DNA of 57,044 nucleotides from Blastocatellia bacterium (lineage in GTDB: Bacteria > Acidobacteriota > Blastocatellia > UBA7656), in the NCBI GenBank assembly GCA_035576605.1, contig DATLWF010000598.1:1-57044 (forward strand), written 5' to 3'. Position 1 is the first letter of the stretch; every line of letters begins with the position of its first letter. The translations under genes and the position numbers were made by a program. Below the pieces are notes generated by a model. It was given only the letters and a program-made list of their open reading frames with translations, was not told the origin of the DNA and ran no database searches. This document shows positions 7,533-35,100 of the stretch, piece after piece.

Positions 7533-7881
7533 AGATCAGGCGTAGCGGTCAGATCGCCTCCTTCTTAGACCTCCGGCAAGACTTTTTGCGAACCTTCTAT
7601 TGAGCCATTGAGTGGACGATGGCCCACGGGCAGCACTTGGCATGCTCGGCCAACCATACAGCTGAACGTTCGCAACGCCCCGACCGGGAGGACCGGATGA
7701 CGGGGGCCGCCGGTTATTGCGGGCGAATTCGATCGATTGAGCGATCTCAATTCCAGATGGACTGTCATTTGGGTGCAGACCTAAACATTTCAGGCCCGTC
7801 CACGTTTCAAGGCGACCGGCCTAAACTCATGCGCCGATGTTCGGCTGGATACCAAGAGTTCATCGGCAAAAGGGCGATTCT

Positions 7882-9237
7882 ATGAGATTCCTTGCATGCT
7901 TTGTGCTGTTTTCACTTGCGTCACCACCGATCATGGCTCAGCAGTCGTCTCAAGAGCGGAAGTCTTGGCCCGGACTAAACAGCTATCTTTCCGACTTGGT
8001 CAAGGCGCAGCAACAAGCGCGACAACAAGCTCAACAAGCGGCCAATGCGGCCACGCCGCAGAAAAAAGACCTGACCCTGGCGGATTCGGTCGACTTATTT
8101 CTTCAACAGAACCTTGAGATTGTCGCCGCGCGTTACGATATCGACACTGCCGACGCCGAAAAGCTCACCGCGCGAATCCGGCCGAATCCGGAGTTTAACG
8201 CCAGTTTCGATGACTTGCCTCTGGATTTCAGTGGTCCGTTCTTCTCCGAGCAGGAGATTGCATACGGGATCTCGCAGACCTTTGAGCTCGGCGGAAAGCG
8301 GCGAAAGCGAATCAACGCCGCGAACGCGAATGCCGAACTTGCGCGGGCGAATTTTCAAGTGACCATGTGGAAACTGACCGACGATCTAAAGCGAAAGTTC
8401 TACACTGTGGTCCTGGCGAGCGATCTGCTGAGACTTGCGAACGAGAACCAGAAGACCTTTGAAGAGATCCTCAAGCACACCACGGAGCAGTTTCAACAAG
8501 GTGAGATTTCCGGGCTCGACCTTCGCCGGCTCGAAGTCGAAAAGCTGAAGTTCGATACCGACGTGGCCAATTCGCGCCGAGACTATGAGGTCGCGCTCCG
8601 TGACTTCAGGTTGGTGCTCGGTGGCGACTATCGATCGATGGAGGTGGCTCCTGCCGGTACCCTCGATTACAAATCCTACGAGTTCGTGCTGGCCGATCTT
8701 CGTGACAAATCGCTCGCGTCGCGGCCGGACCTGAGGGCCGCTCAGATCAGCGAGCTGGCGGCGGATTCGAGCATCAAGCTTCAAGACGCGCAGCGGATTC
8801 CAGACCTCACCGTCGGCGTTGGCCTCAAGCGAATTTTAGTCGACAACACATACAGTTTCGGATTGGGCATAACGTTGCCGGTGTTCGATCGCAATCAAGG
8901 GGAGCGGGTCAAGGCTCTGATTCAAAAGAAGAGAGCTCAGAACGACCAGAAGATCCTGGCCAACCTGGTATTGAGCGACGTGGAAAAGGCGTTGGCCTCG
9001 TTCGAAAGCCAGAAGAACAGGGTCGAGCTTTACCGCACAGGAGTGCTCACCAAGGTGGAGGAGATCCAAAACCTCACCGACTTCTCATTTAAGGCCGGCG
9101 AGGGAACGGTGCTTGACCTTTTGGACGCGATCAGAACTCGCCGTGAAACTCTGGCGAGCTACTATCAAGCTCTCTTCGATTACCAGAATGCGCTGCTGGA
9201 TCTCGAGCTTGCGACCGCAACGCCTCTTCAGAAGTAG
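7882..9237 (+). CDS. TolC-family outer-membrane efflux protein (CusC/CzcC-like)
   Basis: This is track ORF 7837..9237, with start taken at ATG 7882, which gives the signal peptide MRFLACFVLFSLASPPIMAQQ. It has two OEP repeats and is followed by the adaptor and HME-RND pump genes. Confidence 0.9.
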   Translation: MRFLACFVLFSLASPPIMAQQSSQERKSWPGLNSYLSDLVKAQQQARQQAQQAANAATPQKKDLTLADSVDLFLQQNLEIVAARYDIDTADAEKLTARIRPNPEFNASFDDLPLDFSGPFFSEQEIAYGISQTFELGGKRRKRINAANANAELARANFQVTMWKLTDDLKRKFYTVVLASDLLRLANENQKTFEEILKHTTEQFQQGEISGLDLRRLEVEKLKFDTDVANSRRDYEVALRDFRLVLGGDYRSMEVAPAGTLDYKSYEFVLADLRDKSLASRPDLRAAQISELAADSSIKLQDAQRIPDLTVGVGLKRILVDNTYSFGLGITLPVFDRNQGERVKALIQKKRAQNDQKILANLVLSDVEKALASFESQKNRVELYRTGVLTKVEEIQNLTDFSFKAGEGTVLDLLDAIRTRRETLASYYQALFDYQNALLDLELATATPLQK

Positions 9238-9248
9238 CGCGCCGACGC

Positions 9249-9320
9249 CCGACAAACTTCACAGTTTGTCGCTGGCTGATCGTTGAATTTTGGGACTCGC
9301 GACAAACTGAAGTTTGTCGG
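9249..9320. repeat. REPIN-like doublet: two inverted 21-23-nt hairpin units around a ~28-nt spacer (copy A)
   Basis: CCGACAAACTTCaCAGTTTGTCG (9249-9271) and CGACAAACTGAAGTTTGTCGG (9300-9320) are reverse complements. Each unit is itself an 8-bp stem with a TGAA/TTCA loop. A near-identical copy lies at 25747-25816. Confidence 0.7.
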
Positions 9321-9340
9321 ACATTTTCAAAGGAGACACG

Positions 9341-10537
9341 ATGTCACCTCCAGGGTTGATGAAGGTTATTTTGCTTGGGCCGCTCGTGCTGGCGTCGGCA
9401 TGCGGCAAGAGCGCGGACTCCCCCTCGGCTAAAACAAACCAGGGAAATAGCTCGCAAACGGCACAGGCCCAGCCGCTTGACACTGAGACCGCGCAGCCGG
9501 GCACGGTGGCCAGCGCGATCCTTGCTACCGGAACGATCCTGGTTCCGGAAAATCGTATCGCCATCATTGGTCCTGTTCACGAAGGCCGCCTCATGCACCT
9601 TTACGCTGGGCAGGGCACGCACGTGAAGAAGGGCGAGAAATTAGCGGATCTCGAATCAGCCGATATCGACGAGGCTAAGTCTGAATACCTGAAAGCGGTC
9701 GCCGATTTCGAAAACGCGCGAAGGACGACCGCAGCCGAGATCAAACTCGCGCAAGCGAGCTTCGACCGCACCAAGCTCCTTTACGAGAAGAGCATTGCGG
9801 CTCAGAAGACCCTTCAGGCGGCCGAGCACGATCTGGAGGTTGCCAAGGCCGCTGGTGAGAGCTCGATTGCATCAACGAAGGCGGCGCTTGCAGCGGCCCG
9901 GCGCAAATTGCTGGTACTCGGGATGACGCGGTCAGACATAGACGGGCTGAAGGGCGATCAGGATCTCGGCGCTCTCTTTTCGCTCACGGCGCCGATAGAT
10001 GGGATCGTTGTCGAGCGCAATGCAACCATCGGCGCGACCGTCGGACCGGATTCGAGTCTATTCAAGATTATCGACAACTCCAGCGTTTGGGTCGATGCCA
10101 ATGTCTTCGAGAAGGACCTCGATCGAGTGAAGCTCGGGCAGGGCTCAAGGGTTTCGGTTCCCGCGGTTCCCGGCACGGTCTTCTCCGGCAAAGTAATTTT
10201 TGTTTCAAGCGTGGTGGATCCGGAGACACGCACGGTCAAGGTCCGCACCGAAGTTGCAAATCGGGATGGCAGGCTAAAACCGGATATGTTCGCCAACGTA
10301 CAGATCATCACCGAGGCTGATCGCTCAGCTATCTCCGTCCCCCAATCCGCGGTACTCAACGACGACGGCCAATCCGTGGTCTTTGTTTTGACCGCCGGAG
10401 GATATGAGAAGCGCGTGGTCACTACTGGTATTCAGAGCGATGACCGGATCGAGATTCGCGACGGCGTCAAAGCCGGCGAGAAGGTCGTCGTAAAAGGAAA
10501 CTACCTGCTGCTCGAGCAGAGCAAGGTCGTCCGCTAG
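9341..10537 (+). CDS. efflux RND periplasmic adaptor (CusB/CzcB-like, HlyD family), probable lipoprotein
   Basis: This is track ORF 9314..10537. ATG 9341 follows AAGGAG. It has a lipobox LVLASAC, a coiled-coil hairpin and a beta-barrel (…ITAPIDGIVVERNATIGATV…). It sits between the OMF and pump genes. Confidence 0.9.
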   Translation: MSPPGLMKVILLGPLVLASACGKSADSPSAKTNQGNSSQTAQAQPLDTETAQPGTVASAILATGTILVPENRIAIIGPVHEGRLMHLYAGQGTHVKKGEKLADLESADIDEAKSEYLKAVADFENARRTTAAEIKLAQASFDRTKLLYEKSIAAQKTLQAAEHDLEVAKAAGESSIASTKAALAAARRKLLVLGMTRSDIDGLKGDQDLGALFSLTAPIDGIVVERNATIGATVGPDSSLFKIIDNSSVWVDANVFEKDLDRVKLGQGSRVSVPAVPGTVFSGKVIFVSSVVDPETRTVKVRTEVANRDGRLKPDMFANVQIITEADRSAISVPQSAVLNDDGQSVVFVLTAGGYEKRVVTTGIQSDDRIEIRDGVKAGEKVVVKGNYLLLEQSKVVR

Positions 10538-10539
10538 CT

Positions 10540-10648
10540 GGGGAGCGCAGGCATCCTGCCTGCCTGTGCGCCGGAAGAGGCAGCAGGGATGCTCCCAGGG
10601 TTTTCGACTTGAAGAGGCAGGCAGGGATGCCTGCGCTCCCAGGGTTTT
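10540..10648. repeat. palindrome plus direct repeat filling the adaptor-pump intergenic gap
   Basis: GGGGAGCGCAGGCATCCTGCCTGCCT (10540-10565) is the reverse complement (one extra G) of AGGCAGGCAGGGATGCCTGCGCTCCC (10615-10640). The units GAAGAGGCAG...TCCCAGGGTTTT at 10574-10604 and 10611-10648 are direct repeats. The second ends at the pump ATG. Confidence 0.65.
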
Positions 10649-13600
10649 ATGACCGACAATTTCATCGCCTTCTTCTATAAAGAACGACTGCTTGTAGCGG
10701 TCGTCTCCATGCTGATCGTTGGCGGCGGCATTCTCGCGATGAGCAAGCTTAATGTCGACGCTTTTCCGGACGTCACTCCGGTTCAGGTTGAAATAGACAC
10801 TGAAGCTCAGGGGCTCGCGCCGCAGGAGGTCGAGCAGCTCATAACATTTCCGATTGAGAACGTGATGAACGGGATTTCGGGGGTGGTCAGAGTGCTATCG
10901 ATTTCCAAGTTTGGTCTGTCGGTGGTGACGGTCTACTTCAGCGACGACATAGACATTTACTTCGCTCGTCAGCAGGTCCTTGAACGGCTCTCGCTCGCAA
11001 AAGACAGGATCCCGCAGGGATTCGAACCGGAGATGGGCCCGATCACCACCGGCACAGGTCAGATATACCTCTACGAAGTCGTGGGAGCCGGCAGAAGCAA
11101 CCAGGAACTGCGCACGATTCAGGACTGGATCGTCAAGCTTCAACTGCGCACCGTGCCCGGTGTCGCCGACGTGCTCAGCTTTGGCGGCGACGTGAAGCAA
11201 TACCAGGTCATCGTGAATCAGGAGGCGCTGGTCAATTACCACATTGCGCTCAAGGCGGTTTTCGACGCCGTTCAGGCAAACAATCAAAACGCCGGCGCGA
11301 ATTTCATCGAGCACGGCGACAGCCAGTACATCGTTAGGGGGATCGGGCTGGTCAAGGACGTGTCGGATATCAAGAACATTGTCCTCGACTCGCGGAAGGG
11401 CACGCCGGTTCGAGTGAGCGACGTGGCGACGGTAGAGATCGGAAACGAGATCCGCCAGGGGGCGGTCACCAAGGACGGCGCGGGCGAAGTAGTGACTGGG
11501 ATCGTTCTGAAGAGGATCAATGAGAATACCGAGCAGGTGATCAATCGTATCAAGGCGAAGGTCGTCGAGATCAACAAAGCTCTGCCAGAAGGCGTCAGGA
11601 TTGTCGACTACTACGATCAGGGAGAGTTGGTCAGCAGCAGCGTGCACACAGTGGTCGAGTCGCTGATCGAAGGCGAGGCGCTCGTTCTGGTGATCCTCAT
11701 CCTGCTACTCGGAGACATCCGCAGTTCGTTGATTACGGCGGCGGCGATCCCGTTCTGCATGCTTGTGGCGTTCATTCTGATGTGGTACGACGGGCTGTCG
11801 GCGAATCTCTCTTCGCTTGGAGGGCTCGCGATCAGCATCGGGATGATGGTTGACGCCACCGTAGTAATGGTCGAGAACATCTATCGCCATCTCGAGGAGC
11901 ATCAGGAGACATCCGTCCGCGAGGCAATACTTGTTGCCGCTCAGGAGATCGGCCGGCCGATATTCTTTGCCATTCTCGTGATCATCGCGGTCTTTCTACC
12001 TGTCTTTACTCTACAGGGGATCGAAGGCAAGCTGTTTAAGCCGCTGGCCTACGCCGTCACCTTCTCGATGATCGGTTCGATGATGATGGCGGTTTGTATC
12101 GCACCAATGATGTGCGCCCTCTGGCTGAGGCTCAGGAAGGGGGACAGGCGTCCCAATCTGATCATTCGATTTGTAAAAAGCATCTACGTCCCGGTGCTCG
12201 AGTGGGCCATCAAGCACCGATATGCGGCGATTGCCATCGCCGTCTTGCTGATCGTGTGGAGCGTCGCGGATGTATTCATTCTGGGCAGCGAATTCCTCCC
12301 GACGATAGACGAAGGAAACATGCTTGTGAGGGCAACGATGCCCGCGAGCATCTCGCTCAATCGCGCGATCGACGTGTCGACTCAGATCGAGCGCGCACTT
12401 CGAGAATTCCCCGAAGTTGAAACCGTTGTCGCCAAGATCGGGCGCGCTGAACTTGGCGGCGATCCCGAGAGCGTCAGCAATGACGAGTTGTATGTCAGAC
12501 TGAAGCCAAAGACAAAGTGGACTACCGCCGAAACAAAAGATGACCTGGTCGACGCGATGCGTCATCGGGTGGAGGGATTCCCCGGAGTCAAATTCAACTT
12601 CTCTCAGGTCATTCAAACGCGAAATGACGAATTGATCTCGGGAATCAACGCCCAGATCGCGGTGAAGGTGTTTGGCGAGAACCAGGATACTTTGAAGAGG
12701 CTCACGGACGAGATTCGAGCCGCGATGTCCGGCATTCGGGGTGCGAAGGACCTCGCGGTCGAGCAAGTGGCCGGCGAGGAACACCTCGAGATCACGCTGG
12801 ATCGGGACCGGATCGCGCGTTACGGACTCAACATCTCCGACGTGCTGGAAGCGATCAAGATCGCCATCGGCGGCGACGAAGCAACCGATGTGCTCGAAGG
12901 CCAGCGGCGATTTGCGATCTTCATTCGGATGAAAGAGAGCTTCAGGGACCAGGTCGACAAGCTGGGCTCTATTCTCATCGCCGCTCCGGTGGCGGGAAGC
13001 GTGCCGCTCGGACAGCTTGCCTCGTTCACGCTGTCAAGCGGCGACTCAGTTATCAGCCGTGAAGACTCGCTGCGCCGGGTAGTAGTCATGTGCAACGTAG
13101 CGGGCCGCGACATCGGTAGCTTTGTTCACGAAGCGCAGACCGCGGTCGCGAGCCGGGTCAATATGGAACCCGGATACTTCATCACCTGGGGTGGTCAATT
13201 CGAAAACGAACAACAGGCCGTTCGCCGGTTGCTGATCGCAATCCCGATCTCGCTGTTGCTCGTATTCGTTCTGATCTTCGCCTGTTTCAATTCTCTGCGC
13301 AACACGCTGACGATCATTTTCAACATACCTATCGCGCTGGTAGGAAGCACGACGTTTCTTTTGATTTCAGGATTTCCGCTGAGCGTTCCGGCGATCGTCG
13401 GGTTCATTGCGGTGTTCGGAGTTGCCGTCCAGAACGGCATGGTGATGGTGTCCTACATCAACAAGCTCCGCGATCAGGGAATCGAGTTGCACGAAGCGGT
13501 AGTCACCGGCGCGACCGTCCGGCTACGAGCCGAATTGTTGAGCGCGCTGATCGGGAGCATAAGCTTGATCCCATTTATCATCTCGTCGGGAACAGGAGCA

Positions 13601-13726
13601 GAGATCGAGAAACCGCTGGCGATCGTCGTGGTCGGCGGGCTTGTGACTCGGCCGATCAAGATCGTTATTCTGCCGATGGTGTACGAATGGGTCGAACGTC
13701 GGGCCGCAAGACGGGCCGCGGATTAG
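10649..13726 (+). CDS. CusA/CzcA-family heavy-metal efflux RND transporter
   Basis: The 1025-aa ORF has 12-TM RND topology. The N-terminus is typical of HME pumps (FIAFFYKERLLVAVVSMLIVGGG...VDAFPDVTPVQV). The TM4 motif is SIGMMVDATVVMVEN. Confidence 0.95.
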   Translation: MTDNFIAFFYKERLLVAVVSMLIVGGGILAMSKLNVDAFPDVTPVQVEIDTEAQGLAPQEVEQLITFPIENVMNGISGVVRVLSISKFGLSVVTVYFSDDIDIYFARQQVLERLSLAKDRIPQGFEPEMGPITTGTGQIYLYEVVGAGRSNQELRTIQDWIVKLQLRTVPGVADVLSFGGDVKQYQVIVNQEALVNYHIALKAVFDAVQANNQNAGANFIEHGDSQYIVRGIGLVKDVSDIKNIVLDSRKGTPVRVSDVATVEIGNEIRQGAVTKDGAGEVVTGIVLKRINENTEQVINRIKAKVVEINKALPEGVRIVDYYDQGELVSSSVHTVVESLIEGEALVLVILILLLGDIRSSLITAAAIPFCMLVAFILMWYDGLSANLSSLGGLAISIGMMVDATVVMVENIYRHLEEHQETSVREAILVAAQEIGRPIFFAILVIIAVFLPVFTLQGIEGKLFKPLAYAVTFSMIGSMMMAVCIAPMMCALWLRLRKGDRRPNLIIRFVKSIYVPVLEWAIKHRYAAIAIAVLLIVWSVADVFILGSEFLPTIDEGNMLVRATMPASISLNRAIDVSTQIERALREFPEVETVVAKIGRAELGGDPESVSNDELYVRLKPKTKWTTAETKDDLVDAMRHRVEGFPGVKFNFSQVIQTRNDELISGINAQIAVKVFGENQDTLKRLTDEIRAAMSGIRGAKDLAVEQVAGEEHLEITLDRDRIARYGLNISDVLEAIKIAIGGDEATDVLEGQRRFAIFIRMKESFRDQVDKLGSILIAAPVAGSVPLGQLASFTLSSGDSVISREDSLRRVVVMCNVAGRDIGSFVHEAQTAVASRVNMEPGYFITWGGQFENEQQAVRRLLIAIPISLLLVFVLIFACFNSLRNTLTIIFNIPIALVGSTTFLLISGFPLSVPAIVGFIAVFGVAVQNGMVMVSYINKLRDQGIELHEAVVTGATVRLRAELLSALIGSISLIPFIISSGTGAEIEKPLAIVVVGGLVTRPIKIVILPMVYEWVERRAARRAAD

Positions 13727-17345: not shown

Positions 17346-18365
17346 TTACGATTTGCCGACGACGATTACCACAAACGATCCCGGCTTGAGGGTACGCTGG
17401 GGGCGCCTCCCTGGTTCGGACGCCGGGGTTTCCACATACTCGGCCGCAGGAAGAAAGATCTTCTTTGTCTTGCTGTCGAAGGCCATTGTCTTCGCGCTTG
17501 GCTGTGTCTTCACCGCTCCTGCGTCTTCGTAGGCGTCCGCCGACTTCTCTCGGTAGATGCTCAAGGTCCCATCTCCGCACGAAAAGAAGATCAGACCGGC
17601 ACCCGGATCAAAACCGGCATAATCGACATTGGCGCCGATCGGAAAGCTGCTAATTACTTTTCCAGTGGTGGCGTCCATTACAACCATCTTCGGTTCATTG
17701 CGGCACCCTATGAACAGGCGCTTCGTCTTAGCATCATACGCGAGTCCGGTCGGGACCTTCGCCACGCCGATGGGAAAGCGCTTCTTGACCTCCAGCGACT
17801 TCGGGTCGAAGACCACTACTTCGGCAGTGTCCTCGCTGTTGACATAAATAAGACCATCGGCGCCGATTATCGCCTGTTCGCCGTCGCCCCCCGCCTTCAC
17901 CGTCCCTACAACGTCACCGGTCGCCGCATCGATGGCGGTGATATCGTGCGAGCCGTGATTGTTGGTGAATACGCGCTTTGAGCCTGGATCGTAGTAAATT
18001 CCGTCTGGCCCCTTGCCGACATCGATTTTCTTGATGAGCTGCAGCGTTGAGGGATCGAACATCGACACCTTATTCTCGCGCCCATTGCTCGTGAACCCAT
18101 GCTTGAAAGCCGGCGCAAGCGCAACGCCGTGTATTCCCGGCGTGTCCGGGATTGTACCCACAACCTTGCCCGTGTCCGCGTCCAGGACGTCTACCTGGGT
18201 CGCGTGCGAGAGGTAGAGCCGCCGCGCCGAACTGTCCAGCGTCACGTAGTCAAAACCGCCGTTGCCGGGAACTGGGTAACGACCCACCACCCTGTAGTTA
18301 CTCGCGCCTTGGAACATCAGCGCGACTGAAAAGAAACCCATCAAAATGCTTGAGATGGTTGGCAT
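17346..18365 (-). CDS. secreted YncE-like / YVTN-repeat seven-bladed beta-propeller protein
   Basis: The 339-aa ORF has a signal peptide and repeated blades (…GFDYVTLDSSARRLYLSH…, GIHGVALAP, GPDGIYYDPGSKRVFTNN, PTGLAYDAKTKRLFIGC, DYAGFDPGAGLIFFSC). Confidence 0.85.
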   Translation of the reverse strand: MPTISSILMGFFSVALMFQGASNYRVVGRYPVPGNGGFDYVTLDSSARRLYLSHATQVDVLDADTGKVVGTIPDTPGIHGVALAPAFKHGFTSNGRENKVSMFDPSTLQLIKKIDVGKGPDGIYYDPGSKRVFTNNHGSHDITAIDAATGDVVGTVKAGGDGEQAIIGADGLIYVNSEDTAEVVVFDPKSLEVKKRFPIGVAKVPTGLAYDAKTKRLFIGCRNEPKMVVMDATTGKVISSFPIGANVDYAGFDPGAGLIFFSCGDGTLSIYREKSADAYEDAGAVKTQPSAKTMAFDSKTKKIFLPAAEYVETPASEPGRRPQRTLKPGSFVVIVVGKS

Positions 18366-18578: not shown

Positions 18579-19526
18579 CTATTCAGCCTCCGGGCGTAAG
18601 CTCCTTAGTTTTTCCTGAATGAATTCCTTTGATGGTATGGGAGTGATCTTCCCGCCTATTTGATAGATTCGACAGCCGTACGAATAGCCTTCGTTTCTTC
18701 CGTCCAGGTCTTTTCCGTTCACTCGAATTGAAGGCGAGCCCTGGAAACCCACTTTCGCGGCCTGCGCTTGCGAGGTGACGTTGATCAGCACAATGTCCGC
18801 TCGTACCTTGCTCTCCTGCAAGGCAGCCTTAAGATTGATTAAGGCCTGCCTATGCCCAGGACAGGATTTGAAAAATAGAAACTCAACCTTCGCTTTCCCG
18901 TTTGCCTGGCTCGTAGTCGGTGGCGTTTTCATCTCGTCTAGCATCCCTTTCAGTTTGGCTCTGAACGTCGGTTCATCGAACGTTGGCGCTTTCGTGACGC
19001 CGCCGAGTTGGTGCATCCAGAACGCGGGCTGCGGGGGTTCTTCCGTCCAGCTTGCGTCAGTCCCGTACAAGAGATACACATCCCAGGCAATCGATCGCTC
19101 GGTCTTAAGAACGCGCTCCCATTGCTTGCCGGACAAAGATTCCGGGTCCAGGAAGTAAGAGACCCGTTTGTCACGAAAGCTATGTGATAGCTTCCGCGCC
19201 TCGCCTTTGAAGTCACCCCCAAAGATCGGAAGCCAGACAATGTATGCTTTCACCCTTGGATCGGTAACACTCTTGAGCGTCTTCACAATGTTGGAGAACC
19301 CCCAACGACACATCGGTCAAGTGGGAGAGATTAGAGCAACAAGCCGAACCTTGCCCTCATCGTTCTGAAAGGCTTCTCGGAATCGGTCAACACTGCCGAG
19401 CTCCGGTGTTCGAGTCTGGCGGCTCGCGGCAGCCGAGCGGTCACGCTTCTGCGCGGCATTTCCGGTATCCGCGCTGAGGGCGAATGTCACGACTGCCAAA
19501 AGTATTAGCGCCGATTGCTTTTTCAT
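18579..19526 (-). CDS. periplasmic double thioredoxin-like protein with an in-frame TGA in place of the first Cys of CxxC (candidate selenoprotein; alternatively a disrupted gene)
   Basis: Track ORFs 19317..19526 and 18579..19313 are in one frame, separated only by TGA (19317-19319) plus CCG. The joined reading is signal peptide ...GKVRLVALISPT-TGA-PMCRWGFSNIVKTL.... The C-terminal module reads VEFLFFKSCPGH...GSPSIRVNGKDL. Its ATG overlaps the merR stop (ATGA). Confidence 0.55.
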
Positions 19527-19957
19527 TTCTTCACCTCTGACCTGGTGGCATGGGTGATCTCAGCGACGACCGGGCACTTTGCGGCGGCTCCGTGTCTCGC
19601 TAGTTCGGCTTCGCACGCTTGCAGATGACGGGTAAGCGTTCGCTTGAATGTCCGCAGCCCTTTCATTCGCTGGCTAATCTCTTCCAGTTTGGCACGGAGC
19701 AAGTCCCGCATCTGTCCGCACGCGCCGATACCGCCGCCGGTTAGCAGCATTCTGATTTCATCGAGAGAAAAGCCAATCCCTTGCGCTTGCTTAATGAACC
19801 GGACGCGCTCTATCGTCTCAACGGCGAATAGACGGAAGCCGCCTTCGGAGCGCGGCGAGGGAGGCAACAACTTTCGCTTTTCGTAGTAGCGAATAGTGTC
19901 GACGCTGACGCCTGCTCGTTGTGCTACCTCACCGATGCGCCGCAAGGATTGAGTCAC
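19523..19957 (-). CDS. MerR-family heavy-metal-responsive transcriptional regulator
   Basis: The 144-aa ORF has an HTH (IGEVAQRAGVSVDTIRYYEKRKLL), a coiled-coil dimerisation helix, and Cys80, Cys115 and Cys128 (my count) in the positions used by thiophilic-metal MerR sensors. Confidence 0.9.
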   Translation of the reverse strand: MTQSLRRIGEVAQRAGVSVDTIRYYEKRKLLPPSPRSEGGFRLFAVETIERVRFIKQAQGIGFSLDEIRMLLTGGGIGACGQMRDLLRAKLEEISQRMKGLRTFKRTLTRHLQACEAELARHGAAAKCPVVAEITHATRSEVKK

Positions 19958-19963
19958 GGTAAG

Positions 19964-19995
19964 AGTCTACACTGTGGAGCCAGGTCTAGAGTCAA
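19964..19995 (-). promoter_or_regulatory. MerR-type promoter with over-long spacer (TTGACT - 20 nt - TAGACT)
   Basis: On the minus strand, TTGACT lies at 19990-19995 rc, the spacer is 20 nt, and TAGACT lies at 19964-19969 rc. The -10 box ends 6 nt before the GTG start (19957), which implies a near-leaderless merR mRNA. Confidence 0.4.
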
Positions 19996-23483: not shown

Positions 23484-23554
23484 GAATGCGAATCCGTCGC
23501 CCGCGTTAATTCCAGATTCATTTTGTGCGTGCTAGACTGGGCCGGGACTCAGTC

Positions 23555-24244
23555 ATGCGAATACTGCTTGTCGAGGACGAACCCAGAGTCGCGCGCTTCA
23601 TAGCGAAGGGTTTGCGCGAGCAGAGCTACGCGGTTGATATCGCCGGTGATGGCGACGCAGCGTTATACAAGGCCGAAATCGATGACTACGACCTGATCGT
23701 TCTGGACGTAATGATTCCCTCGCGCGATGGGTTTGACGTCTGCCGCGAGCTGCGCCGCCAGGCCGTAACCACTCCCGTCCTCATGCTCACCGCGCGGGAC
23801 GCGGTGAACGACCGTGTTGCAGGGCTGGATGCGGGCGCCGACGACTACCTGAGCAAACCCTTCGACTTCAAAGAGCTGCTCGCAAGACTGCGCGCGCTGC
23901 TCCGTCGGAGAGAAGCTCTCAGGACAGAATCCCTTCGGGTCGATGACCTGACAATCAACACAACGAACCACACTGTCGAGCGTTCCGGAAGAAATATCAG
24001 TCTGACGGCAAAGGAGTACTCGCTGCTCGAGTTCTTTGCGTTGAACGCAGGCAAGCTGGTGGGACGCGACGAGATCGGCCGACACGTGTGGGATGAGAAC
24101 TTCGATCCGTTCTCGAATGTCATCGATGTCTATGTTCGGCGGTTGCGCAAGAAGATCGACGAGGGTTCTAGTCGGCCGTTGATCCACACACGCCGCCGCG
24201 AAGGCTATGTTTTCTCCGGCGAGGCTAAAGGCGGTAATGTTTAA
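23555..24244 (+). CDS. OmpR-family response regulator (CusR/CopR-like)
   Basis: It has a receiver domain (MRILLVEDEPRVARFI...DLIVLDVMIPSRDGFDVC...PVLMLTARD) and a winged-helix output domain (…LTAKEYSLLEFF…IHTRRREGYVF). Confidence 0.93.
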   Translation: MRILLVEDEPRVARFIAKGLREQSYAVDIAGDGDAALYKAEIDDYDLIVLDVMIPSRDGFDVCRELRRQAVTTPVLMLTARDAVNDRVAGLDAGADDYLSKPFDFKELLARLRALLRRREALRTESLRVDDLTINTTNHTVERSGRNISLTAKEYSLLEFFALNAGKLVGRDEIGRHVWDENFDPFSNVIDVYVRRLRKKIDEGSSRPLIHTRRREGYVFSGEAKGGNV

Positions 24245-25643
24245 CAGCGTACACGTTCGGATGACATTGTGGTACGTGCTCGTCTTCGGGTTGCTGCTGG
24301 CCTGCTTTAGCGTTTTCGTCTACGCCGCAATCTCGCGAGCGACATATTCGCGGCTTGATCAATCTCTCACCAACAGCACTGAGACCACAGCGAATTTGCT
24401 TAGATCGGAGATGGACGAGAATGAAGGCGATGTTACTGCGGCTGCGGCCGAGACCCAAAAACTGCTGAGCCTCGGTGACGCGCATATGGCGTTGTTTCAA
24501 GGCGGGCACGCGCTGACAGCGAATGACTCGAGCGGCTGGGTGATAAACGTTCCCGAGTCGGCCTTTCGGGCCGCCGAGGCAGACAGCGGACCGTCGCTGT
24601 CCACGGTTGGTGGTTTTGACGAGGAGGGAGCGCGGCTGGCGGTTCTGCGGTTGGGCACGGGCGAGGCGGAGTACTTTCTTGCTCTGGCGCAACCGCTGCA
24701 TAACACCGTAGAAGAACTCGAAGCGCTGGGACGCATCTTCTACCTGGCGATTCCAGGCGCACTGCTGGTTGCCGGTGTGGGAGGTCTGCTCCTCGCTCGG
24801 AAGAGCCTGGCTCCGGTCGCCGCGATGACCGAGCAGGCTGCATCGATCAGCGCTCGGAATCTTCACGAGCGGCTGGAGGTGACCAACTCTCGGGATGAAC
24901 TGGGCCGGCTGGCCACGGTGCTCAACAATCTGCTCTCGAGGCTCGACCGCTCGTTCGAGAGCCTGCGCCAGTTCACTGCCGACGCTTCCCACGAGATGCG
25001 CACTCCACTTTCGATCATAAGAGGAGAGGCCGAAGTAGCACTTTCTCAGAACCGTGATGAAGCGGAATATCGGGAGTCCCTTGCGATAGTGCAGGACGAG
25101 GCGCGGCGGCTCTCCCGCATGGTTGACGATATGCTCGCCCTTGCGCGCGCGGATGACGGACAACAAAGACTGAACGTCGAAGAGTTCTACCTCAATGATC
25201 TTGTGGAAGAGTGCGCAAGGTCGTCGCAAGTCCTCGCTCTCGCCAAAGGAATATCTTTGACGGTCGACCCTGCAACTGACATCACTTTTCGAGGCGACGA
25301 ATCTCTGCTCAGGAGAATGATCGTAAACCTGCTCGACAACGCCATAAAATACACTCCCTCTGGCGGTCAGGTTTCGGTCAGGGTCTCAAGCAAAGACGCC
25401 GGCGTAGAGATTACTGTGGCGGATACCGGGATTGGCATACCCGCCGAGGCCACGACACGCATCTTTGAGAGGTTTTACAGAGCCGACCGAGCTCGCTCCC
25501 GATCAGATGGTGGAAGCGGATTGGGACTCTCGATAGCCAAATGGGTGGCGGAAACTCACAATGGTTCCATTGAGCTTGATAGCAGACCGGGCGGGGGCAG
25601 CACGTTTACTGTTTCGCTTCCTCAAAGCAAGCCCACTGCTTGA
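24237..25643 (+). CDS. sensor histidine kinase (two TM helices, HAMP, HisKA, HATPase; CusS-like)
   Basis: ATG 24237 overlaps the regulator stop by 8 nt. It has an H-box FTADASHEMRTPLSII, an N-box LLDNAIKYTP and G-boxes DTGIGIP / GGSGLGLSIAK. Confidence 0.92.
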   Translation: MFNSVHVRMTLWYVLVFGLLLACFSVFVYAAISRATYSRLDQSLTNSTETTANLLRSEMDENEGDVTAAAAETQKLLSLGDAHMALFQGGHALTANDSSGWVINVPESAFRAAEADSGPSLSTVGGFDEEGARLAVLRLGTGEAEYFLALAQPLHNTVEELEALGRIFYLAIPGALLVAGVGGLLLARKSLAPVAAMTEQAASISARNLHERLEVTNSRDELGRLATVLNNLLSRLDRSFESLRQFTADASHEMRTPLSIIRGEAEVALSQNRDEAEYRESLAIVQDEARRLSRMVDDMLALARADDGQQRLNVEEFYLNDLVEECARSSQVLALAKGISLTVDPATDITFRGDESLLRRMIVNLLDNAIKYTPSGGQVSVRVSSKDAGVEITVADTGIGIPAEATTRIFERFYRADRARSRSDGGSGLGLSIAKWVAETHNGSIELDSRPGGGSTFTVSLPQSKPTA

Positions 25644-29179: not shown

Positions 29180-30706
29180 ATGTCAAACGCGATCTCCGGT
29201 GGGAGGCTCAATCCAAGCCCAATGACAAAGCTGATGGATCTATCGATTGACCGCAGCTTTCATTCTCGTTACTTATTGCGGTTCTTTTTAGCGGCGATAG
29301 TGCTCGTAGCGGTCTGGTCCGTCGGCCGCGGCCAGGCGCCTCTCGAACCAGCGGTGAAGCACAACGAGCCGGCTCAAACACCACAACAGAACCCTTCTAC
29401 TCAAACCCAGCCACCCGCGAAACCTGAACTCAACTCTTCCGCTCAACAGCCTGCGCCTCCGATAAATCGGTTGACCCGGGATGAAGCGGTTCGCCTCGCG
29501 CTGGCGCAGGCATCCGCATTTCAAACTGCTCAATATGCCGAGTTGATAGCCGCCGAGGACGTTCGGCAGGCCCGAGCCGCGTTTCTCCCTCGCATTACGG
29601 TTCCGTCCACGTTCATATACAACTCACCTACTCTGGGTCCGGTTGCGGCCGGCACACCGCGCGCTGACAGGTTCAGCTTCATAAGCGCGAACGCGGTCAA
29701 CGAGTATCAAGTACTGGCTGGAGCATCGGGTGAGATAGACGTTGTCGGACGTCTGCGGGCAGCCTTGAGACGCAGCGTGGCGCTACTTGAAGCCGCCCGC
29801 GCAGGAACGGAGATCGCCCGCAGGACACTGATCCAGGGCATTGACGATGCTTACTACGGACTCGCCCTGGCGACGGCGAAACGCCGCGCGTCGGAGCTTA
29901 GTCTCGCAGCCACGGAAGAATTCGCGCGCATCACCGAACTGATGTATAACGCCGGCGAAGTTGCCGAGGTAGACTTGATTCGTGCCCGGCTGCAGGTGGC
30001 TTCGCGTCGTGATGAGGTCGAGCAGGCTCGCGTCGCCGAGTCGGTGGCCGCCGGCGCATTGCGAGTCCTGGTGGGCTACGATTTCGCCGCGCCAATAGAT
30101 GTGGTCGATCTTGCGACGGCATTGCCCGACGCCGCCGGAATAGACCGATTCGCCGCGGCTGCCATTTCTACGCGGCCCGAGTTTGCACAGCTTGACGCGG
30201 AGCTGCGCGCCGCCGAGCAGGAAGCGAAAGCCGCTCGCGCTGAACGTCTCCCGCAGGTCTCCTACTCCATCAACGGCGGATTCGATTCTGAATCGCTGCG
30301 GCCTGACCCGCTCCGCGATCACACCGGAGTGCTGGCAACGGTGAGCGTGACCATTCCGATCTTCGATTGGGGCGCGAGTCGTAGCCGCGAACAGCAGGCA
30401 AGGCTGCGCGCGAAGAGTTTCCAGTCTGAACGCAATCTCGCGGTTCGAAACTTCACTCAGCAATTCTACGCCGCTCGAGCGCAAGCGCTTGCGGCCGCGT
30501 CGCGGTATCAGTTCCTGAGCCAGAGCGTCGGAAACGCGGAGCGAAACTTACAAGCGTCCATCGCGCGTTACCGCTCGGGCGAGGCTCCCATAATAGAAGT
30601 GACCGATGCACAAAGCACGCTTGCCGCTCAGCGAGCCGCGCTTTATCAGGCCTTGTTTGATTATCAGCAAGCGCGTGCGCGCTTGCTTCAAGTCACCGGA
30701 CAGTAA
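29180..30706 (+). CDS. TolC-family outer-membrane efflux protein
   Basis: The 508-aa ORF has a Pro/Gln-rich linker followed by two OEP repeats (…LTRDEAVRLALAQASAF…, …ALYQALFDYQQARARLLQVTG). It is the first gene of a TolC-MFP-RND triad. The start (29180, 29222 or 29234) is uncertain. Confidence 0.88.
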   Translation: MSNAISGGRLNPSPMTKLMDLSIDRSFHSRYLLRFFLAAIVLVAVWSVGRGQAPLEPAVKHNEPAQTPQQNPSTQTQPPAKPELNSSAQQPAPPINRLTRDEAVRLALAQASAFQTAQYAELIAAEDVRQARAAFLPRITVPSTFIYNSPTLGPVAAGTPRADRFSFISANAVNEYQVLAGASGEIDVVGRLRAALRRSVALLEAARAGTEIARRTLIQGIDDAYYGLALATAKRRASELSLAATEEFARITELMYNAGEVAEVDLIRARLQVASRRDEVEQARVAESVAAGALRVLVGYDFAAPIDVVDLATALPDAAGIDRFAAAAISTRPEFAQLDAELRAAEQEAKAARAERLPQVSYSINGGFDSESLRPDPLRDHTGVLATVSVTIPIFDWGASRSREQQARLRAKSFQSERNLAVRNFTQQFYAARAQALAAASRYQFLSQSVGNAERNLQASIARYRSGEAPIIEVTDAQSTLAAQRAALYQALFDYQQARARLLQVTGQ

Positions 30707-30720
30707 CCGTTGCTAACAAA

Positions 30721-32133
30721 ATGCAAAGCAACAAAACAGAAACTGTGACCACCATTAAGGGCGAATCCCATCCGCCTCGTTCATGGAAAGAGCGAATTGT
30801 CCTCCTCAGGCAAAAACGGAACTGGCCGATCCTCGCCGTGCTGTTAGCTGTCCTGGTCGTGATCGTCGTATGGCTGTGGCCCTCGAAGAAACAGGCAGCG
30901 GAGGAGGAAGAAGCCGTCGTAGTCAGCGTTCGCGTTGCAAAAGCCGAACGCGATTCGATCGCCGCAGAAGTAACCGCTCTCGGCACAATCTTCCCTCGTC
31001 ACGAGGCGACGGTCAGCTCGAAGATCGCCGGCCAGCTGAAACAGATGGCGCTGCTCAAAAACAAAGCAGTGCGCGAAGGCGAGGTGATAGCGACCCTGGA
31101 GTCCCGCGATATCCAGGCTCAACGCGCGGAAGCGGCGGCAGCGGCGCAGGAAGCTCGGGTCAACCTCAATAACACAACTTCGGGGACTATTCCGCAGACT
31201 CGCGCGCAGGACGAAAAGGCCGTACGCGATGCACAGGCTAACGTCAACAACGCGCGGACGCTGTATGAGCGCCGGTTGAGACTCTACGAACAGGGCGGGA
31301 TTTCCAAGAAGGACGTTGAAGCTTCCCAGCTCGCACTGACCACCGCCGAAAACGATCTGCGCCTGGCTGAAGCCACCGCGCGATTGCACGCGACTACGAT
31401 CAGCCCTAATGACCGCGCTGTCGCCGAAGCTAAGCTCAAACAGGCCGAGGACCGGCTTGCCGGCCTGGAAACTCAGTTGAGCTACGCGACTATTCGCGCG
31501 CCGTTCTCCGGGGTTATCACCGACCAATTCCAGTTCCAGGGCGAGTTCGTTTCGGCGGGCGGCAAACTGTTCACAATTGGGGACGTCAGCGACGTGATTG
31601 TGAAGGCTCCCGTGGCCGATACGGTAGCCGCTCAGCTCAAGATCGGGGACTCGGCAAAGGTTCTTCCGCAGGACCTCGCCGGCGAGGAACTGGTCGGTAT
31701 CATTTCGCTGGTAAGCAGAGCGAGTGATCCTCAGAGTCGCACCGTCGAGGTGTGGATCAACCTCAAGAACGAAGGCGGTCGCCTGCGCTCCAATATGGCA
31801 GCGAAGGTTGTGGTCTCAACGCAAACTGCCAGCGATGTAATTGTCGTTCCCGTGGCGGCGGTGACACTCGATGCGACAAACGCGAATGAAGGCACCGTTA
31901 TGGTTGTCGACGATCAATCGATAGCTCACGAAACGAAGGTGACCGTTGGCATTCGAGCAAAAGACAAAACGGAAATAACGTCCGGACTCAAGGGTGGTGA
32001 GACGGTTGTCATTGAAGGCAACTACGCGTTGCCCGATGAAACCAGGGTTGAAGTTAGCGAGGACGAAGAGAACAAGAGCGATGCCAATGAAGAAAAGAAG
32101 GATACTCCCACAAAAAAGGGAGATCAGCGGTGA
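30721..32133 (+). CDS. efflux RND periplasmic adaptor subunit (HlyD/MFP family)
   Basis: The 470-aa ORF has a TM anchor, a lipoyl/hairpin/beta-barrel layout (…ATIRAPFSGVITDQFQFQGEFV…) and an acidic/Lys-rich tail. Its stop overlaps the pump start (GTGA). Confidence 0.9.
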   Translation: MQSNKTETVTTIKGESHPPRSWKERIVLLRQKRNWPILAVLLAVLVVIVVWLWPSKKQAAEEEEAVVVSVRVAKAERDSIAAEVTALGTIFPRHEATVSSKIAGQLKQMALLKNKAVREGEVIATLESRDIQAQRAEAAAAAQEARVNLNNTTSGTIPQTRAQDEKAVRDAQANVNNARTLYERRLRLYEQGGISKKDVEASQLALTTAENDLRLAEATARLHATTISPNDRAVAEAKLKQAEDRLAGLETQLSYATIRAPFSGVITDQFQFQGEFVSAGGKLFTIGDVSDVIVKAPVADTVAAQLKIGDSAKVLPQDLAGEELVGIISLVSRASDPQSRTVEVWINLKNEGGRLRSNMAAKVVVSTQTASDVIVVPVAAVTLDATNANEGTVMVVDDQSIAHETKVTVGIRAKDKTEITSGLKGGETVVIEGNYALPDETRVEVSEDEENKSDANEEKKDTPTKKGDQR

Positions 32134-35100
32134 GCCTGGCGGGGGTCGTCTCCAGTCAATCACGCGCGGTCGTGGTGCTGGTCGGGCTCCTGTGCGCCGC
32201 CGGGATCTACGCTGCCTTAGCACTCCCCGTAGCCATTTTCCCTCAAACTGATTTCCCTCGCGTCGTGATCATCATCGACGACGGCGTTGTGCCAGCCCCC
32301 CAGGTTCTCGTATCAGTCACCCGCCCGATTGAAGAAGCGATGAACGGTATTCCGGGCGTAGTGCGCATACGATCTACGACGCAACGCGGGGGCTGCGACG
32401 TAAGCCTCTTCTTCGATTGGAAGGTCGACATAATCGAATCGCTTCAGATGGTTCAGGAGCGCCTCGCGCAGATGGCTTCGAGCCTGCCGCCAGGCGCTTC
32501 GATCCGCCGCGTTGAACGACTTACTTTTGCGGTCTTTCCTGTGGCCGGCTACAGCCTGACATCAGACGTGCGTGACCCCGCGAGTCTGCGGGACCTTGCG
32601 ACTTACGTCGTCAGACCCCGACTCACGCGGCTTGCCGGCATTGCGGCAGTTGCCGTCGCCGGCGGAGAAAAACGCGAGTTCCACGTTACTGTCGACCCCG
32701 CGCGGTTGGTCGCGCGCGGCGTTTCGCTGGAGCAAGTGGTAGACGCGGTGAACAAGGCAAACATCATCGCCTCGCCCGGTCTAATCGAAGAAAACCATCA
32801 ACTCGAACTCGCCCTGGTAAGCGGCCAGGCCAAGAAGCCAGAGGAGCTTAACCCGATCGTCGTAGCTGTGGTGAACAATGCGCCGGTTACGCTCTCGGAA
32901 GTGGCAACGGTTGGAGAAGGGGTCGCGCCGAATTACACAATCGTCACCGCGGATGGTCATCCAGCCGTGCTGCTAAACATCACTCGCCAGCCGGATGCCA
33001 ATACCGTGGAAGTGGTTGACGCGGTGAAGGCGGAGTTGGCCGCGATTCGTCTACAGCTTCCGAAAGATGTCAAAGTCGCGCCATATTACGATCAGTCGTT
33101 GCTGGTGCGCGCTTCGATCAACTCGGTCCGCGATTCGATTCTGATCGGCCTCGTGCTCTCGGTCGCGATTCTCTATGGCTTTCTGAGAAACGCTGGAACG
33201 ACCTTCGTCGCAATACTTGTGATTCCGGTGACGGTGCTCGCGACGTTTCTCGCGATGTGGCTCGCGGGGTTGAGTTTCGACTTGATGACTCTGGGCGGCG
33301 TCGCGGCGGCCATCGGTTTGGTAATAGATGACGCGATCGTAGTGGTCGAAAACATCTACACCCACCGGGCCCGCGGCGAGTCTCGTCACGACGCGGTTCA
33401 GCGCGCGGTGTCGGAGATAACCATTCCGATTATCGGCTCGACCGTAACGCCGGTGGTCGTCTTTCTGCCGCTCACGCTGCTGACAGGGGTCACTGGCGTC
33501 TTCTTTCGCTCGCTTGCGCTGACGATGGCAGTGGCACTGTTGACATCGCTGGTGCTCGCGCTTTCATTCACCCCCGTACTGGCCGAACGATTCATCAAGC
33601 CGAGGCGTCGCCCCGCAGGTGAGGAGGACAGCCTTGCGGGCGCTGAACTGGAAGGCGAGCTTGCCGCAGAAGAGCGCGAGGAAGCTAGAGAGCAGGGAAG
33701 ACTGTTACGCGCGATTGTGGTGCGCTACGAGTGGCTGCTTGGAAAGGCGCTCGACAACCGAGCGATTGTGCTCCTCGTGTGTGCCGGCGTGCTTGCGGGG
33801 TCGTATCTCGTCTATCGAAACCTGGGCTCCGAGTTTTTGCCGGAATTCGACGAAGGAGCGTTTGTGCTGGATTACTTCACGCCGCCGGGAACGTCGCTCG
33901 CGGAAACGGACCGCATACTGAAACACGTCGAGGACATGTTGAAGGACACGCCGGAGGTTGAGAGCTACTCCCGGCGCACTGGATTACAGCTCGGTCTGTT
34001 TATCACCGAGCCTAATACCGGGGATTTTCTCGTGAAACTGAAACCCGGTCGCAAGCGCAGCACCGAGGAAGTGAAGGACGATCTTCGAAAGGAGATCGCG
34101 TCAAAAGAACCGGGTCTGTCTCGTGTCGAGTTGCCAGGCATCCTCGGAGACCTGATAGGTGATTTGACCAGCGAGCCGCAGCCGGTCGAGATAAAACTAT
34201 TCAGCGAGGACGCGAAAGCGCTTCATCTCAAGGCCGCCGAGATCGAAGATGTCATCAAGAAGATTCCGGGCATCGTGGACACATTTAACGGTGTGACGAT
34301 CAGCGGTCCGGGGATCACCTTCAAGATCGATCCTCAGCGCGCAGCCCAGCTAGGCGTCACTGCGACCGATGTTGCGAACACCGTTACAACCGCGATGACC
34401 GGTGACGCGACTTCTGCCGTCCTGCAGCAGGATCGTTTGATCAGCGTGCGGGTAGTGCTGCCCAGGGAGTCGCGACAGTCGCTCGATGCATTGCGGGCGC
34501 TGCCAATCCGCTCTCCGGTGAAGAACACGTTGTTTCGTCTCGATCAGGTCGCCGACATTGAGTACGACAAGGGGCAAACCGAAATCGCGCGGGACGGCCT
34601 GCGACAGACGGTCGGAGTCACCGCGCGTCTTGAAGGAATCGACCTTGGCTCGGCGATAGGAACGATCCAGGCGAAGCTGGGAAAGGACGTGAAGCTGCCG
34701 CCGGGAATGACGCTCGAATACGGGGGGCTTTACCGCGAACAGCAAGCGAGCTTTCGCGAGATGACGCTTGCATTAGGGCTGGCGATTACGCTGGTGTTCA
34801 TAACACTGCTCATCGAGTTTCGCTCTTTCGCACACCCGGCTGCGATCGTCACCGGGGCAGTCCTCGCGTTGAGCGGTGTCCTCGTCGCGCTCCTGGTCAC
34901 GCACACGACGCTTAATGTTGTTTCCTATATGGGAATGATCATGGTCGTGGGCATCGTTGCCAAGAACGGAATACTGATGCTGGACGCGGTCGAGGATCAT
35001 CTGACGGCGGGCGATACGTTGAGGGACGCACTGCTACGATCGGGAAGGCGAAGGTTCAGACCGGTGCTAATGACCTCGCTTGCAGCGATGCTCGGAATGA

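Follow-up and report, generated by a model that had tools for sequence, protein, structure and literature searches.

The window analysed here is a stretch of 57,044 nucleotides from a Blastocatellia bacterium (Acidobacteriota; assembly GCA_035576605.1, contig DATLWF010000598.1, positions 1 to 57,044), and its subject is a candidate selenoprotein gene on the minus strand, together with the gene for a MerR-family regulator that lies immediately upstream. Two of the listed open reading frames (ORFs), 19317..19526 (69 amino acids) and 18579..19313 (244 amino acids), occupy a single common frame, in which they are divided by a TGA and one CCG codon. Read through, this frame starts at an ATG (19526-19524) with GAGGTG 6 nt to its 5' side, continues past the TGA (19319-19317) with CCG ATG TGT, and stays open until a TAG at 18581-18579. 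The N-terminus of the joined product reads MKKQSALILLAVVTFALSA, followed by DTGN, and its central motif is VRLVALISPT-TGA-PMCRWGFSNIV. The merR ORF (19523-19957) overlaps the start of the gene in an ATGA, so that the arrangement given in a preliminary description, which was made from the sequence alone and proposed one frame split by TGA plus a single codon and coupled to merR, stands in all these particulars. The features of the locus, along with related genes discussed below, are collected in Table 1.

Table 1. Features of the window and Sec-form paralogues at related loci
Feature	Position	Strand	Remarks
Complete selenoprotein gene	18579..19526	minus	315 codons + TAG stop, one in-frame UGA (Sec70)
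Predicted Sec-type signal peptide, residues 1-19	19470..19526	minus	MKKQSALILLAVVTFALSA, then D; read by eye from the sequence
U/C domain, about residues 45-199, predicted TlpA/ResA-like thioredoxin fold	18930..19394	minus	conserved motifs AWDVY, FWMHQL
UGA codon, residue 70, read as selenocysteine	19317..19319	minus	TGA/Cys column comparison
U-P-M-C (UxxC) motif, where helix 1 of the predicted thioredoxin fold begins	19308..19319	minus
SECIS-type hairpin	19290..19306	minus	stem GUUGGGG 19306-19300, loop GUU 19299-19297, stem CUCCAAC 19296-19290
DF-family domain, Cys form, residues 214-305	18612..18887	minus	NF049942
MerR-family (ZntR-like) metal-responsive regulator	19523..19957	minus	Cys80, Cys115, Cys128
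MerR-type promoter/operator	19964..19995	minus	TTGACT 19995-19990, 20-nt spacer, TAGACT 19969-19964
Sec-form paralogues	L014:9930, L017:1259, L018:6461 and 8976, L020:1651, L021:701, L023:6759, L050:9027, L060:10350, L076:6855	+ strand of each locus

The TGA/cysteine column and the hairpin downstream

Among 5.8 billion proteins searched, 213 homologues of the product were found. The best 120 of the 213, which extend down to 57% identity, are about 240 amino acids long, and every one of them starts at the Met two codons past the TGA or further downstream, as gene callers would have it at a conserved recoded stop. We therefore returned to the DNA, taking 80 genomic loci (L numbers below) from named metagenome-assembled genomes (MAGs) and reading the frame upstream of each match. 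A recognisable site was found in 77 of them. The column in question holds TGA in 56 of these loci and TGC or TGT in the other 21; thus, in the alignment of homologues for which the preliminary description had called, the column is TGA or Cys exactly. The upstream frame is open in all 77 and encodes a conserved strand, (V/I)R(L/V)(V/I)xLLSP(T/V/G). The loci span more than 10 phyla, and by MAG label the TGA forms come from Acidobacteriota (Blastocatellia, Pyrinomonadaceae, Chloracidobacterium), Poribacteria, Eremiobacterota, KSB1, Calditrichota, Zixibacteria, Ignavibacteria, Chloroflexota, Gemmatimonadota, Binatia and Thermodesulfobacteriota. In a neighbour-joining tree of the domain that carries the column, hereafter the U/C domain, Sec (selenocysteine) and Cys forms are interleaved, which implies repeated exchange between the two.

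The family is larger than these loci. An exhaustive profile search gave 2,096 clusters (50% identity) at E<=1e-3 and 1,182 at E<=1e-10; of the 150 top-ranking family representatives, SPx-CxxC is present in 88, and roughly 40 start just past the U column. The full-length Cys forms, of 195-201 amino acids, are named 'hypothetical protein' in the databases almost without exception.

These homologues bear directly on whether the locus might hold two genes, a secreted peptide of 69 amino acids ending at the TGA and a 244-amino-acid protein translated by reinitiation from an ATG two codons later. Gene callers make exactly this split, and in the window the ATG is in place. That Met is not conserved, however: other TGA loci have PGC, PAC, PKC, PHC or GHC after the TGA, and no Shine-Dalgarno sequence stands ahead of the internal ATG. 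The division would also cut the thioredoxin fold described below between strand 1 and helix 1 and take away half of the UxxC motif, whereas the Cys-form homologues are single contiguous proteins. We regard separate genes as highly improbable, in agreement with the preliminary description, which had argued that neither half makes sense on its own.

At the same time, the codon is a single base away from TGC and TGT, and the gene might be either a dead relic or an ordinary CxxC gene in which one of these codons was mutated or miscalled. Such an accident would have to have happened in 56 loci, assembled independently and drawn from many phyla, and again in scores of truncated database entries. It would also have to leave the coding constraint on both halves untouched: in the window's subgroup, the differences upstream of the TGA number 1237 at third codon positions, compared with 510 at first and 347 at second positions, and those downstream 1018, compared with 484 and 349, so that third-position differences dominate on both sides and the constraint, as judged from these substitutions, is equal. 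Finally, a hairpin specific to the TGA loci co-varies with the state of the codon. For the family as a whole a pseudogene or sequencing error is effectively refuted, and for the window we give it next to no credence.

Directly downstream of the TGA in the window lies a hairpin of 7 bp and 17 nt, with an apical loop that starts 17 nt after the UGA and an energy of -8.2 kcal/mol. Published constraints on the bacterial Sec insertion sequence (bSECIS) ask for an apical loop of 3-9 nt, an upper stem of 4-16 bp, a G in the first two loop positions, a UGA-to-loop distance of 16-37 nt and a minimum free energy of -7.5 kcal/mol or lower (PMC13188914), and the window hairpin satisfies every one of them. 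The comparison across loci, counted over distinct sequences, is more telling. With relaxed criteria, a hairpin of bSECIS geometry is present in 44 of 53 TGA loci and in none of 21 Cys loci, and hairpin energies differ between the two groups (Mann-Whitney p = 6e-7). With the strict criteria the figures are 35 of 53 and 1 of 21 (Fisher p = 1e-6), and the 18 TGA loci that fail have the same hairpin in the same place with 6 bp or fewer.

The pairing itself is conserved. Of the cells in 42 register-matched TGA sequences, 86.6% are paired and 27 are compensatory; four of eight pairs have changed on both sides (GC/UA, UA/CG/GC, CG/UA/GC and GC/AU), the observed score was reached in none of 500 shuffles, and every slid register scores far lower. 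The preliminary description had suggested running a bacterial SECIS predictor downstream of the codon, and the outcome is a hairpin that fits the bSECIS criteria, shows compensatory changes among TGA loci and is missing from Cys loci. A second class of hairpin, CGGRCAA-GGUG-UUGUCCG with its loop 20-21 nt after the UGA, is found in a cytoplasmic subgroup of the family (L053, L057, L068, L070), to which L039 probably also belongs. Rfam, run at gathering thresholds over the whole window, returned no match to a curated bacterial SECIS family.

The same comparison speaks to the idea that UGA stands here for one of the standard amino acids (Trp, Cys or Gly), through a reassigned code or a suppressor. 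UGA reassignment does exist in some bacterial lineages. In the window, though, TGA is the commonest ordinary stop, terminating 18 of 36 ORFs of at least 150 amino acids, and therefore is not globally reassigned. The loci represent many phyla with the standard code, the column alternates with Cys only, inside a CxxC motif, and the SECIS-geometry hairpin is specific to TGA. A standard amino acid at this position strikes us as barely conceivable, and we are all but certain that the TGA is a real selenocysteine codon in a genuine Sec-encoding gene.

Sec decoding in the source genome, and the actual insertion of Sec into this protein, would follow from that reading of the codon. Selenocysteine use has been documented in Acidobacteriota, in Occallatibacter riparius (PMC12013277). 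A further sign comes from the related genomes: in nine loci, Sec-form paralogues with the same hairpin are located within 4 kb of Cys-form copies (Table 1), an independent sign of Sec use in those genomes. Their motif is LSPT-TGA-PxC-LRGAS, one of their hairpins reads CUUCGGGG-GGC-CUCCGAAG, and the 120-amino-acid ORFs of one cluster of neighbouring genes (cluster 9), in which no Pfam domain was found, appear to be truncated versions of these paralogues.

Several observations on individual loci should be recorded beside these results. On the Chloroflexota contig of the family member L070, an in-frame TGA at L070:6873 (+) within VLVLYFSFPG-TGA-PTCALEAP is followed 17 nt downstream by a strong hairpin, GCGCUGGA-GGC-UCCAGCGC; it probably encodes a UxxC selenoprotein of the Prx-like/AhpC-TSA type. 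Besides the gene under study, a scan of the window for further TGA-split genes with SECIS-like hairpins produced only off-frame or antisense artefacts. Two Calditrichia homologues outside the 77 (L040 and L048) have lost both U/CxxC positions, with D-P-L-S and W-L-I-S in their place, and keep the rest of the domain; judged by these residues they would be variants without redox or metal-binding capacity. At L004:5600-5700 there is an apparent frameshift near the 3' end of the homologue, the conserved TPTPTKEFI... continuing in another frame, which is probably an assembly error. Five MAGs (L001, L005, L015, L019 and L050) are labelled Clostridia, Heliomicrobium or Heliobacteriaceae, yet their loci resemble those of Acidobacteriota/Blastocatellia (76-88% for L001 and L005, the others closely related) and have the same merR promoter; the taxonomy assigned to these co-assembly bins looks doubtful.

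Domains of the protein and its regulator

The predicted protein begins with a putative signal peptide, and on this reading of the sequence would be exported. A hydrophobic N-terminal segment precedes the U/C column in 64 of the 77 family members; the label 'periplasmic' in the preliminary description thus suits this protein and most of its relatives, while it cannot be extended to all of them.

Structures were modelled for a full-length Cys-form homologue (P0121) and for the post-TGA part of the window protein. The AlphaFold model of P0121 has a mean pLDDT of 86, with a core of 89-98 per 10-residue block, and places a strand at residues 56-62, then C66 and C69, with a helix (67-82) beginning there. 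In a Foldseek comparison with the PDB, its closest matches are 3or5, a Chlorobium thiol:disulfide interchange protein, and 1lu4, followed by M. tuberculosis DsbE and DsbF, B. subtilis ResA, DipZ-C, glutathione peroxidase (GPx) and Sco; E values are modest (1e-5 to 1e-3), target-normalised TM scores are 0.5-0.67 and identities 11-19%. From these models the U/C domain is confidently predicted to adopt a thioredoxin fold of the TlpA/ResA type, with the U/CxxC motif at the N-terminus of helix 1, much as the preliminary description had read the layout from the letters. A possible departure from that fold is a near-invariant A-W-D ahead of strand 3 in place of x-Pro, a placement taken from the secondary-structure output.

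Sequence models, on the other hand, pass the domain by. Over the U/C domain of the window protein, Pfam gave only a sub-threshold Thioredoxin_4 match (residues 57-130), and no NCBIfam model matched. Among 39 family members searched one by one against Pfam, none had a U/C-domain match at cutoff, the best sub-cutoff matches being AhpC-TSA in one (E=0.057) and Thioredoxin_4 in six (best E=0.014). A sequence-profile search of the PDB gave nothing significant, with marginal thioredoxin matches; some zinc-finger matches from the same search fell on CxxCRxGF and were set aside as spurious.

The second domain is easier to name. Residues 214-305 score 79.8 bits against a cutoff of 70 with NF049942, the 'DF family (seleno)protein' model, and there are weak matches to Thioredoxin_3 and DUF2703 in Pfam (residues 220-275). 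Invariant in this domain are Cys222-Pro223, within FFKSCPGH in the window, and Cys285-Arg286. The model of the post-TGA part (pLDDT 84) shows two domains joined through a disordered linker, and its C-terminal domain resembles minimal thioredoxins and SelW-like proteins. A second thioredoxin-like module in the C-terminal half, which the preliminary description had also suspected, thus takes shape as a DF-family domain.

The regulator passes the Pfam cutoffs for PF13411 (MerR_1, 67.8 bits), PF00376 (MerR, 61.5) and PF09278 (MerR-DNA-bind, 58.1). It shares 39% identity with E. coli ZntR, whose metal-ligand cysteines C79 and C114 align with its Cys80 and Cys115, the positions expected of the heavy-metal subgroup (start of the dimerisation helix and C-terminal loop), and the heavy-metal-type MerR of the preliminary description can now be described more closely as ZntR-like. 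Upstream of it, the operator contains an imperfect dyad, ACTCTAGAC...GTGTAGACT, between -35 and -10, and the promoter closely matches E. coli PzntA, cTTGACTCTGGAGTCGACTCCAGAGTGTATCCT, as read from the K-12 genome. The same promoter stands upstream of merR with a 20-nt spacer in 17 further loci and with a 19-nt spacer in one more. A standard sigma-70 scan with spacers of 16-18 nt found no promoter here, as expected for a 20-nt spacer. Mercury-type MerR was also considered as an identity for the regulator, and was dropped when the operator dyad proved to be of ZntR type against the actual E. coli sequence. Only 6 nt separate the end of the -10 hexamer (19969-19964) from the GTG with which merR starts (19957), with the same spacing in most related loci, so the merR-selenoprotein transcript may be leaderless or nearly so.

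Genomic context and proposed role

The neighbourhood of the family is rich in metal-related genes. A MerR homologue is found nearby in 24 loci; in 20 it is upstream on the same strand, and in 12, the window included and most of them from the window's subgroup, it abuts the gene. Fourteen loci have a MerT-family gene in the vicinity, in most cases immediately adjacent; a homologue of the CopZ-N-terminal-like 2Fe-2S metallochaperone is nearby in 13, about 130 nt or less upstream in eight; and CDF efflux genes are nearby in nine.

The U/C domain is also repeatedly fused to domains of this kind. HMA and U/C domains share one protein in L050, L051, L060, L062 and L063, and at L068:7671-9500 a single ORF joins HMA, the U domain and a MerA core (TIGR02053, 365 bits). 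This ORF stops early at a TAA with no continuation in any frame, so it counts as evidence of association and not as an intact enzyme; two MerR genes near it, in this locus only, have CCGTAC...GTACGG operators, which we take to be of Tn501 type, in place of the ZntR-type dyad. Among database relatives, P0307 is a fusion of MerT-like, HMA and U/C domains, and P0241 and P0367 combine U/C, HMA and a Thioredoxin_3-like domain. Multi-domain relatives (P0241, P0248, P0255, P0307, P0367, P0285) include some with two or three tandem U/C domains among HMA and Thioredoxin_3-like ones; in P0285 a DF-like domain appears to precede the U/C domain, to judge from its N-terminal motif only, Pfam having found nothing in this protein.

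Taken together, the PzntA-like promoter, the ZntR-like regulator and the metal-gene context suggest a metal-inducible operon of the divalent, thiophilic type. A general pathway can then be proposed. The gene would be transcribed with its own regulator from the 20-nt-spacer promoter and its operator dyad, a type of promoter that is activated by binding of a divalent thiophilic metal (Zn, Cd, Pb or Hg type) to the regulator. During translation, UGA codon 70 would be decoded as selenocysteine, the hairpin 10 nt downstream, with its G-first apical loop, acting as a bSECIS that recruits SelB with Sec-tRNA(Sec). After export by way of the signal peptide, the mature protein would consist of a thioredoxin fold with a U-P-M-C selenolate/thiolate pair and of a DF domain with its two invariant cysteines. 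Its job would most likely be the capture and hand-over of thiophilic metal ions in the envelope, as for MerP or the N-terminal HMA domain of MerA, with a selenium ligand that would be much stronger than theirs; alternatively, it may keep the metal-binding cysteines of partner proteins reduced.

Overall, we put the probability of this explanation, that of one gene for an exported two-domain selenoprotein under metal-responsive control and engaged in envelope metal handling, at roughly 85%. Its parts are not equally firm. A role tied to thiophilic-metal handling is probable, in our judgement, and the inducing metal is likely to be of the divalent thiophilic type. That Sec70 is itself a metal ligand (Hg/Cd/Zn-type) and not a redox catalyst, perhaps together with Cys73 and the conserved Asp149 and His172, we offer as a tentative suggestion.

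A more conventional role has to be weighed against this. The protein may be a genuine selenoprotein that serves as a general thiol-disulfide (selenylsulfide) oxidoreductase of the envelope, of the TlpA/ResA/DsbE kind, reducing or isomerising disulfides of exported proteins without binding metal directly, with the regulator coupling envelope redox repair to metal stress. The solved structures most like it are ResA, DsbE, DsbF, TlpA-like reductases and GPx; among thioredoxin-fold selenoproteins the redox motif is classically UxxC (PMC13188914); and the Poribacteria members have no metal genes nearby. Against a general oxidoreductase stand the repeated fusions to HMA domains, MerT-like domains and a MerA core and the tight adjacency to MerT-like and CopZ-N-terminal-like genes, and copper-binding Sco proteins are also among the structural neighbours. 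The two roles overlap in part, in that redox service to metal proteins is the second option within the metal-handling explanation. We consider a general oxidoreductase unlikely, though by a good deal the most serious competitor.

Five observations weigh against the metal-handling selenoprotein that we favour. First, the regulator falls below every NCBIfam equivalog cutoff (MerR 110.9 against 150.85, ZntR 101.3 against 143, CadR 86.1 against 151.45, CueR 82.9 against 147.4), and these matches consequently do not single out the inducing metal. Second, the conserved unit at the window locus is merR plus the selenoprotein gene only, with no MerT, HMA or MerA gene beside it. Third, no metal genes were found near the genes of the Poribacteria subgroup, and its SnoaL-like fusion and spermine-synthase-like neighbour place the domain outside metal contexts as well. 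Fourth, the 76 nt of the window downstream of the codon, folded alone, have an unremarkable energy (z = -0.36), so the case for the hairpin rests on comparison. Fifth, selA, selB, selD and tRNA-Sec were all missing from the 57 kb window (searched with, among others, Rfam and ARAGORN); the preliminary description had proposed looking for these genes, and their absence from one 57 kb piece of a chromosome is uninformative.

The Poribacteria variant (L033, L036-L038, L041-L044, L046, L047, L049, L052, L069) deserves a description of its own. Its protein, of about 376 amino acids, has a SnoaL/ketosteroid-isomerase-like N-terminal domain and the U domain at the C-terminus, and its gene is always followed by one for a protein of about 835 amino acids, with a weak spermine-synthase match, and then by a PCMT methyltransferase gene; a different functional context seems likely for this group.

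Elsewhere in the window, metal and metalloid resistance functions are plentiful among housekeeping genes (citrate synthase, malic enzyme, DAHP synthase, GlgC). Two complete efflux operons of the OEP/CusB-type MFP/RND kind lie at 7837-13726 and 29180-35243 (+), with a two-component system between them at 23525-25643 (+), and an ArsR + LMW-phosphatase (ArsC-like) pair lies at 43378-44605. A YncE-like beta-propeller gene (17346-18365), 214 nt downstream of the selenoprotein gene, was considered as a part of the system and rejected, as it is not conserved beside the gene in other loci.

Comparison with known systems

The mechanism proposed here, UGA with a bSECIS, a UxxC motif in a thioredoxin fold and Cys homologues, is entirely of a known kind. 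A 2026 inventory of 119 prokaryotic selenoprotein families includes many thioredoxin-fold UxxC families, among them thiol-disulfide isomerase-like/TlpA-like (cd02966), Redoxin, DsbA-like and DsbG-like proteins (PMC13188914). The family described here shares with them a UGA at the first Cys of CxxC at the start of helix 1, Cys-form orthologues, a bSECIS hairpin just downstream, and the export or membrane anchoring of many members. It differs in that no member matches AhpC-TSA, Redoxin, Thioredoxin_2/8, DSBA, NF041057, NF045500, NF047660 or NF040730 at cutoff, in the AWD that by our reading would occupy the place of the cis-Pro of thioredoxins, and in its metal-operon context and fusions.

With the proteins of mer operons, MerP and the N-terminal domain of MerA (NmerA), the resemblance is one of setting and not of fold. 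In family loci, as in theirs, a MerR-type regulator stands upstream and MerT is adjacent; a two-residue soft-ligand motif (GMTCxxC in MerP, SPT-U/C-xx-C in the U/C family) is common to both; and in L068 the U domain is placed between an HMA domain and the MerA core. Unlike MerP and NmerA, which have the ferredoxin-like HMA fold, the U/C domain is predicted to be a thioredoxin fold and is often fused to HMA instead of replacing it. No HMA domain was found in the window protein with Pfam or NCBIfam, and where its relatives have HMA, it is always a distinct domain to which the protein is fused.

The regulatory region is closest to E. coli ZntR/PzntA, with which it shares the -35 TTGACT, a spacer of 20 nt, the dyad (ACTCTGGAG...CTCCAGAGT) and a TAnnnT-type -10. 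The difference lies in the layout, since the window regulator is the first gene of its own operon and drives a selenoprotein gene, not one for a P-type ATPase.

Metal-related selenoproteins in the same inventory include the MerT-like, UxxU metal-binding, CopZ family, SaoT and SO_0444 proteins (PMC13188914). Known examples are a putative mercuric transport protein (MerT-like, C/SxxU), the UxxU family NF041115, the MerT/CopZ fusion NF045683, the CopZ-N-terminal family NF045877 and SaoT. In these, as in the U/C family, Sec takes the place of Cys in a metal-handling context, and the neighbours and fusion partners of the U/C family belong to them. The U/C domain is nonetheless of another family and fold, and is matched by none of their models. 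The closest relative of the C-terminal domain is the hypothetical protein DF (NF049942), found by deep-Sep and reported from Desulfosediminicola flagellatus with no TGA-containing homologues in other organisms (PMC12013277); the window's DF domain differs from it in being a Cys form that is fused behind another, Sec-containing domain. Tested by Pfam and NCBIfam model identifiers, cd02966 excluded, the U/C domain is absent from the inventory of 119 families (PMC13188914), and a literature search found no description of a MerR/ZntR-linked thioredoxin-fold selenoprotein. The family, its domain architecture and its operon context thus appear to be undescribed so far.

Regardless of the precise chemistry at Sec70, recognition of this family has practical consequences. 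Its Sec forms are currently miscalled as 'hypothetical proteins' of 120-244 amino acids that lack strand 1 and the active-site selenocysteine, and a new domain model would correct scores, probably hundreds, of miscalled genes. The family also brings a thioredoxin-fold protein into the small set of selenoproteins linked to heavy metals, one with a clear regulatory signature in its PzntA-like promoter and ZntR-like regulator and with informative fusion partners in HMA, MerT-like, MerA and DF domains. If Sec70 is indeed a metal ligand, the U/C domain would represent an unrecognised class of selenolate-based module for metal trafficking or sequestration that acts alongside HMA, MerT-like and DF-family domains and is placed under control of the ZntR type, and this would amount to a widespread selenium-dependent metal-resistance device in bacteria that live in soil or with sponges (Acidobacteriota, Eremiobacterota, Poribacteria and others). 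The family extends the use of selenium in abundant and little-studied environmental lineages, namely Acidobacteriota (Blastocatellia, Pyrinomonadaceae), Eremiobacterota and Poribacteria, and it offers a concrete system for asking whether selenocysteine serves as a metal ligand in bacterial metal resistance.

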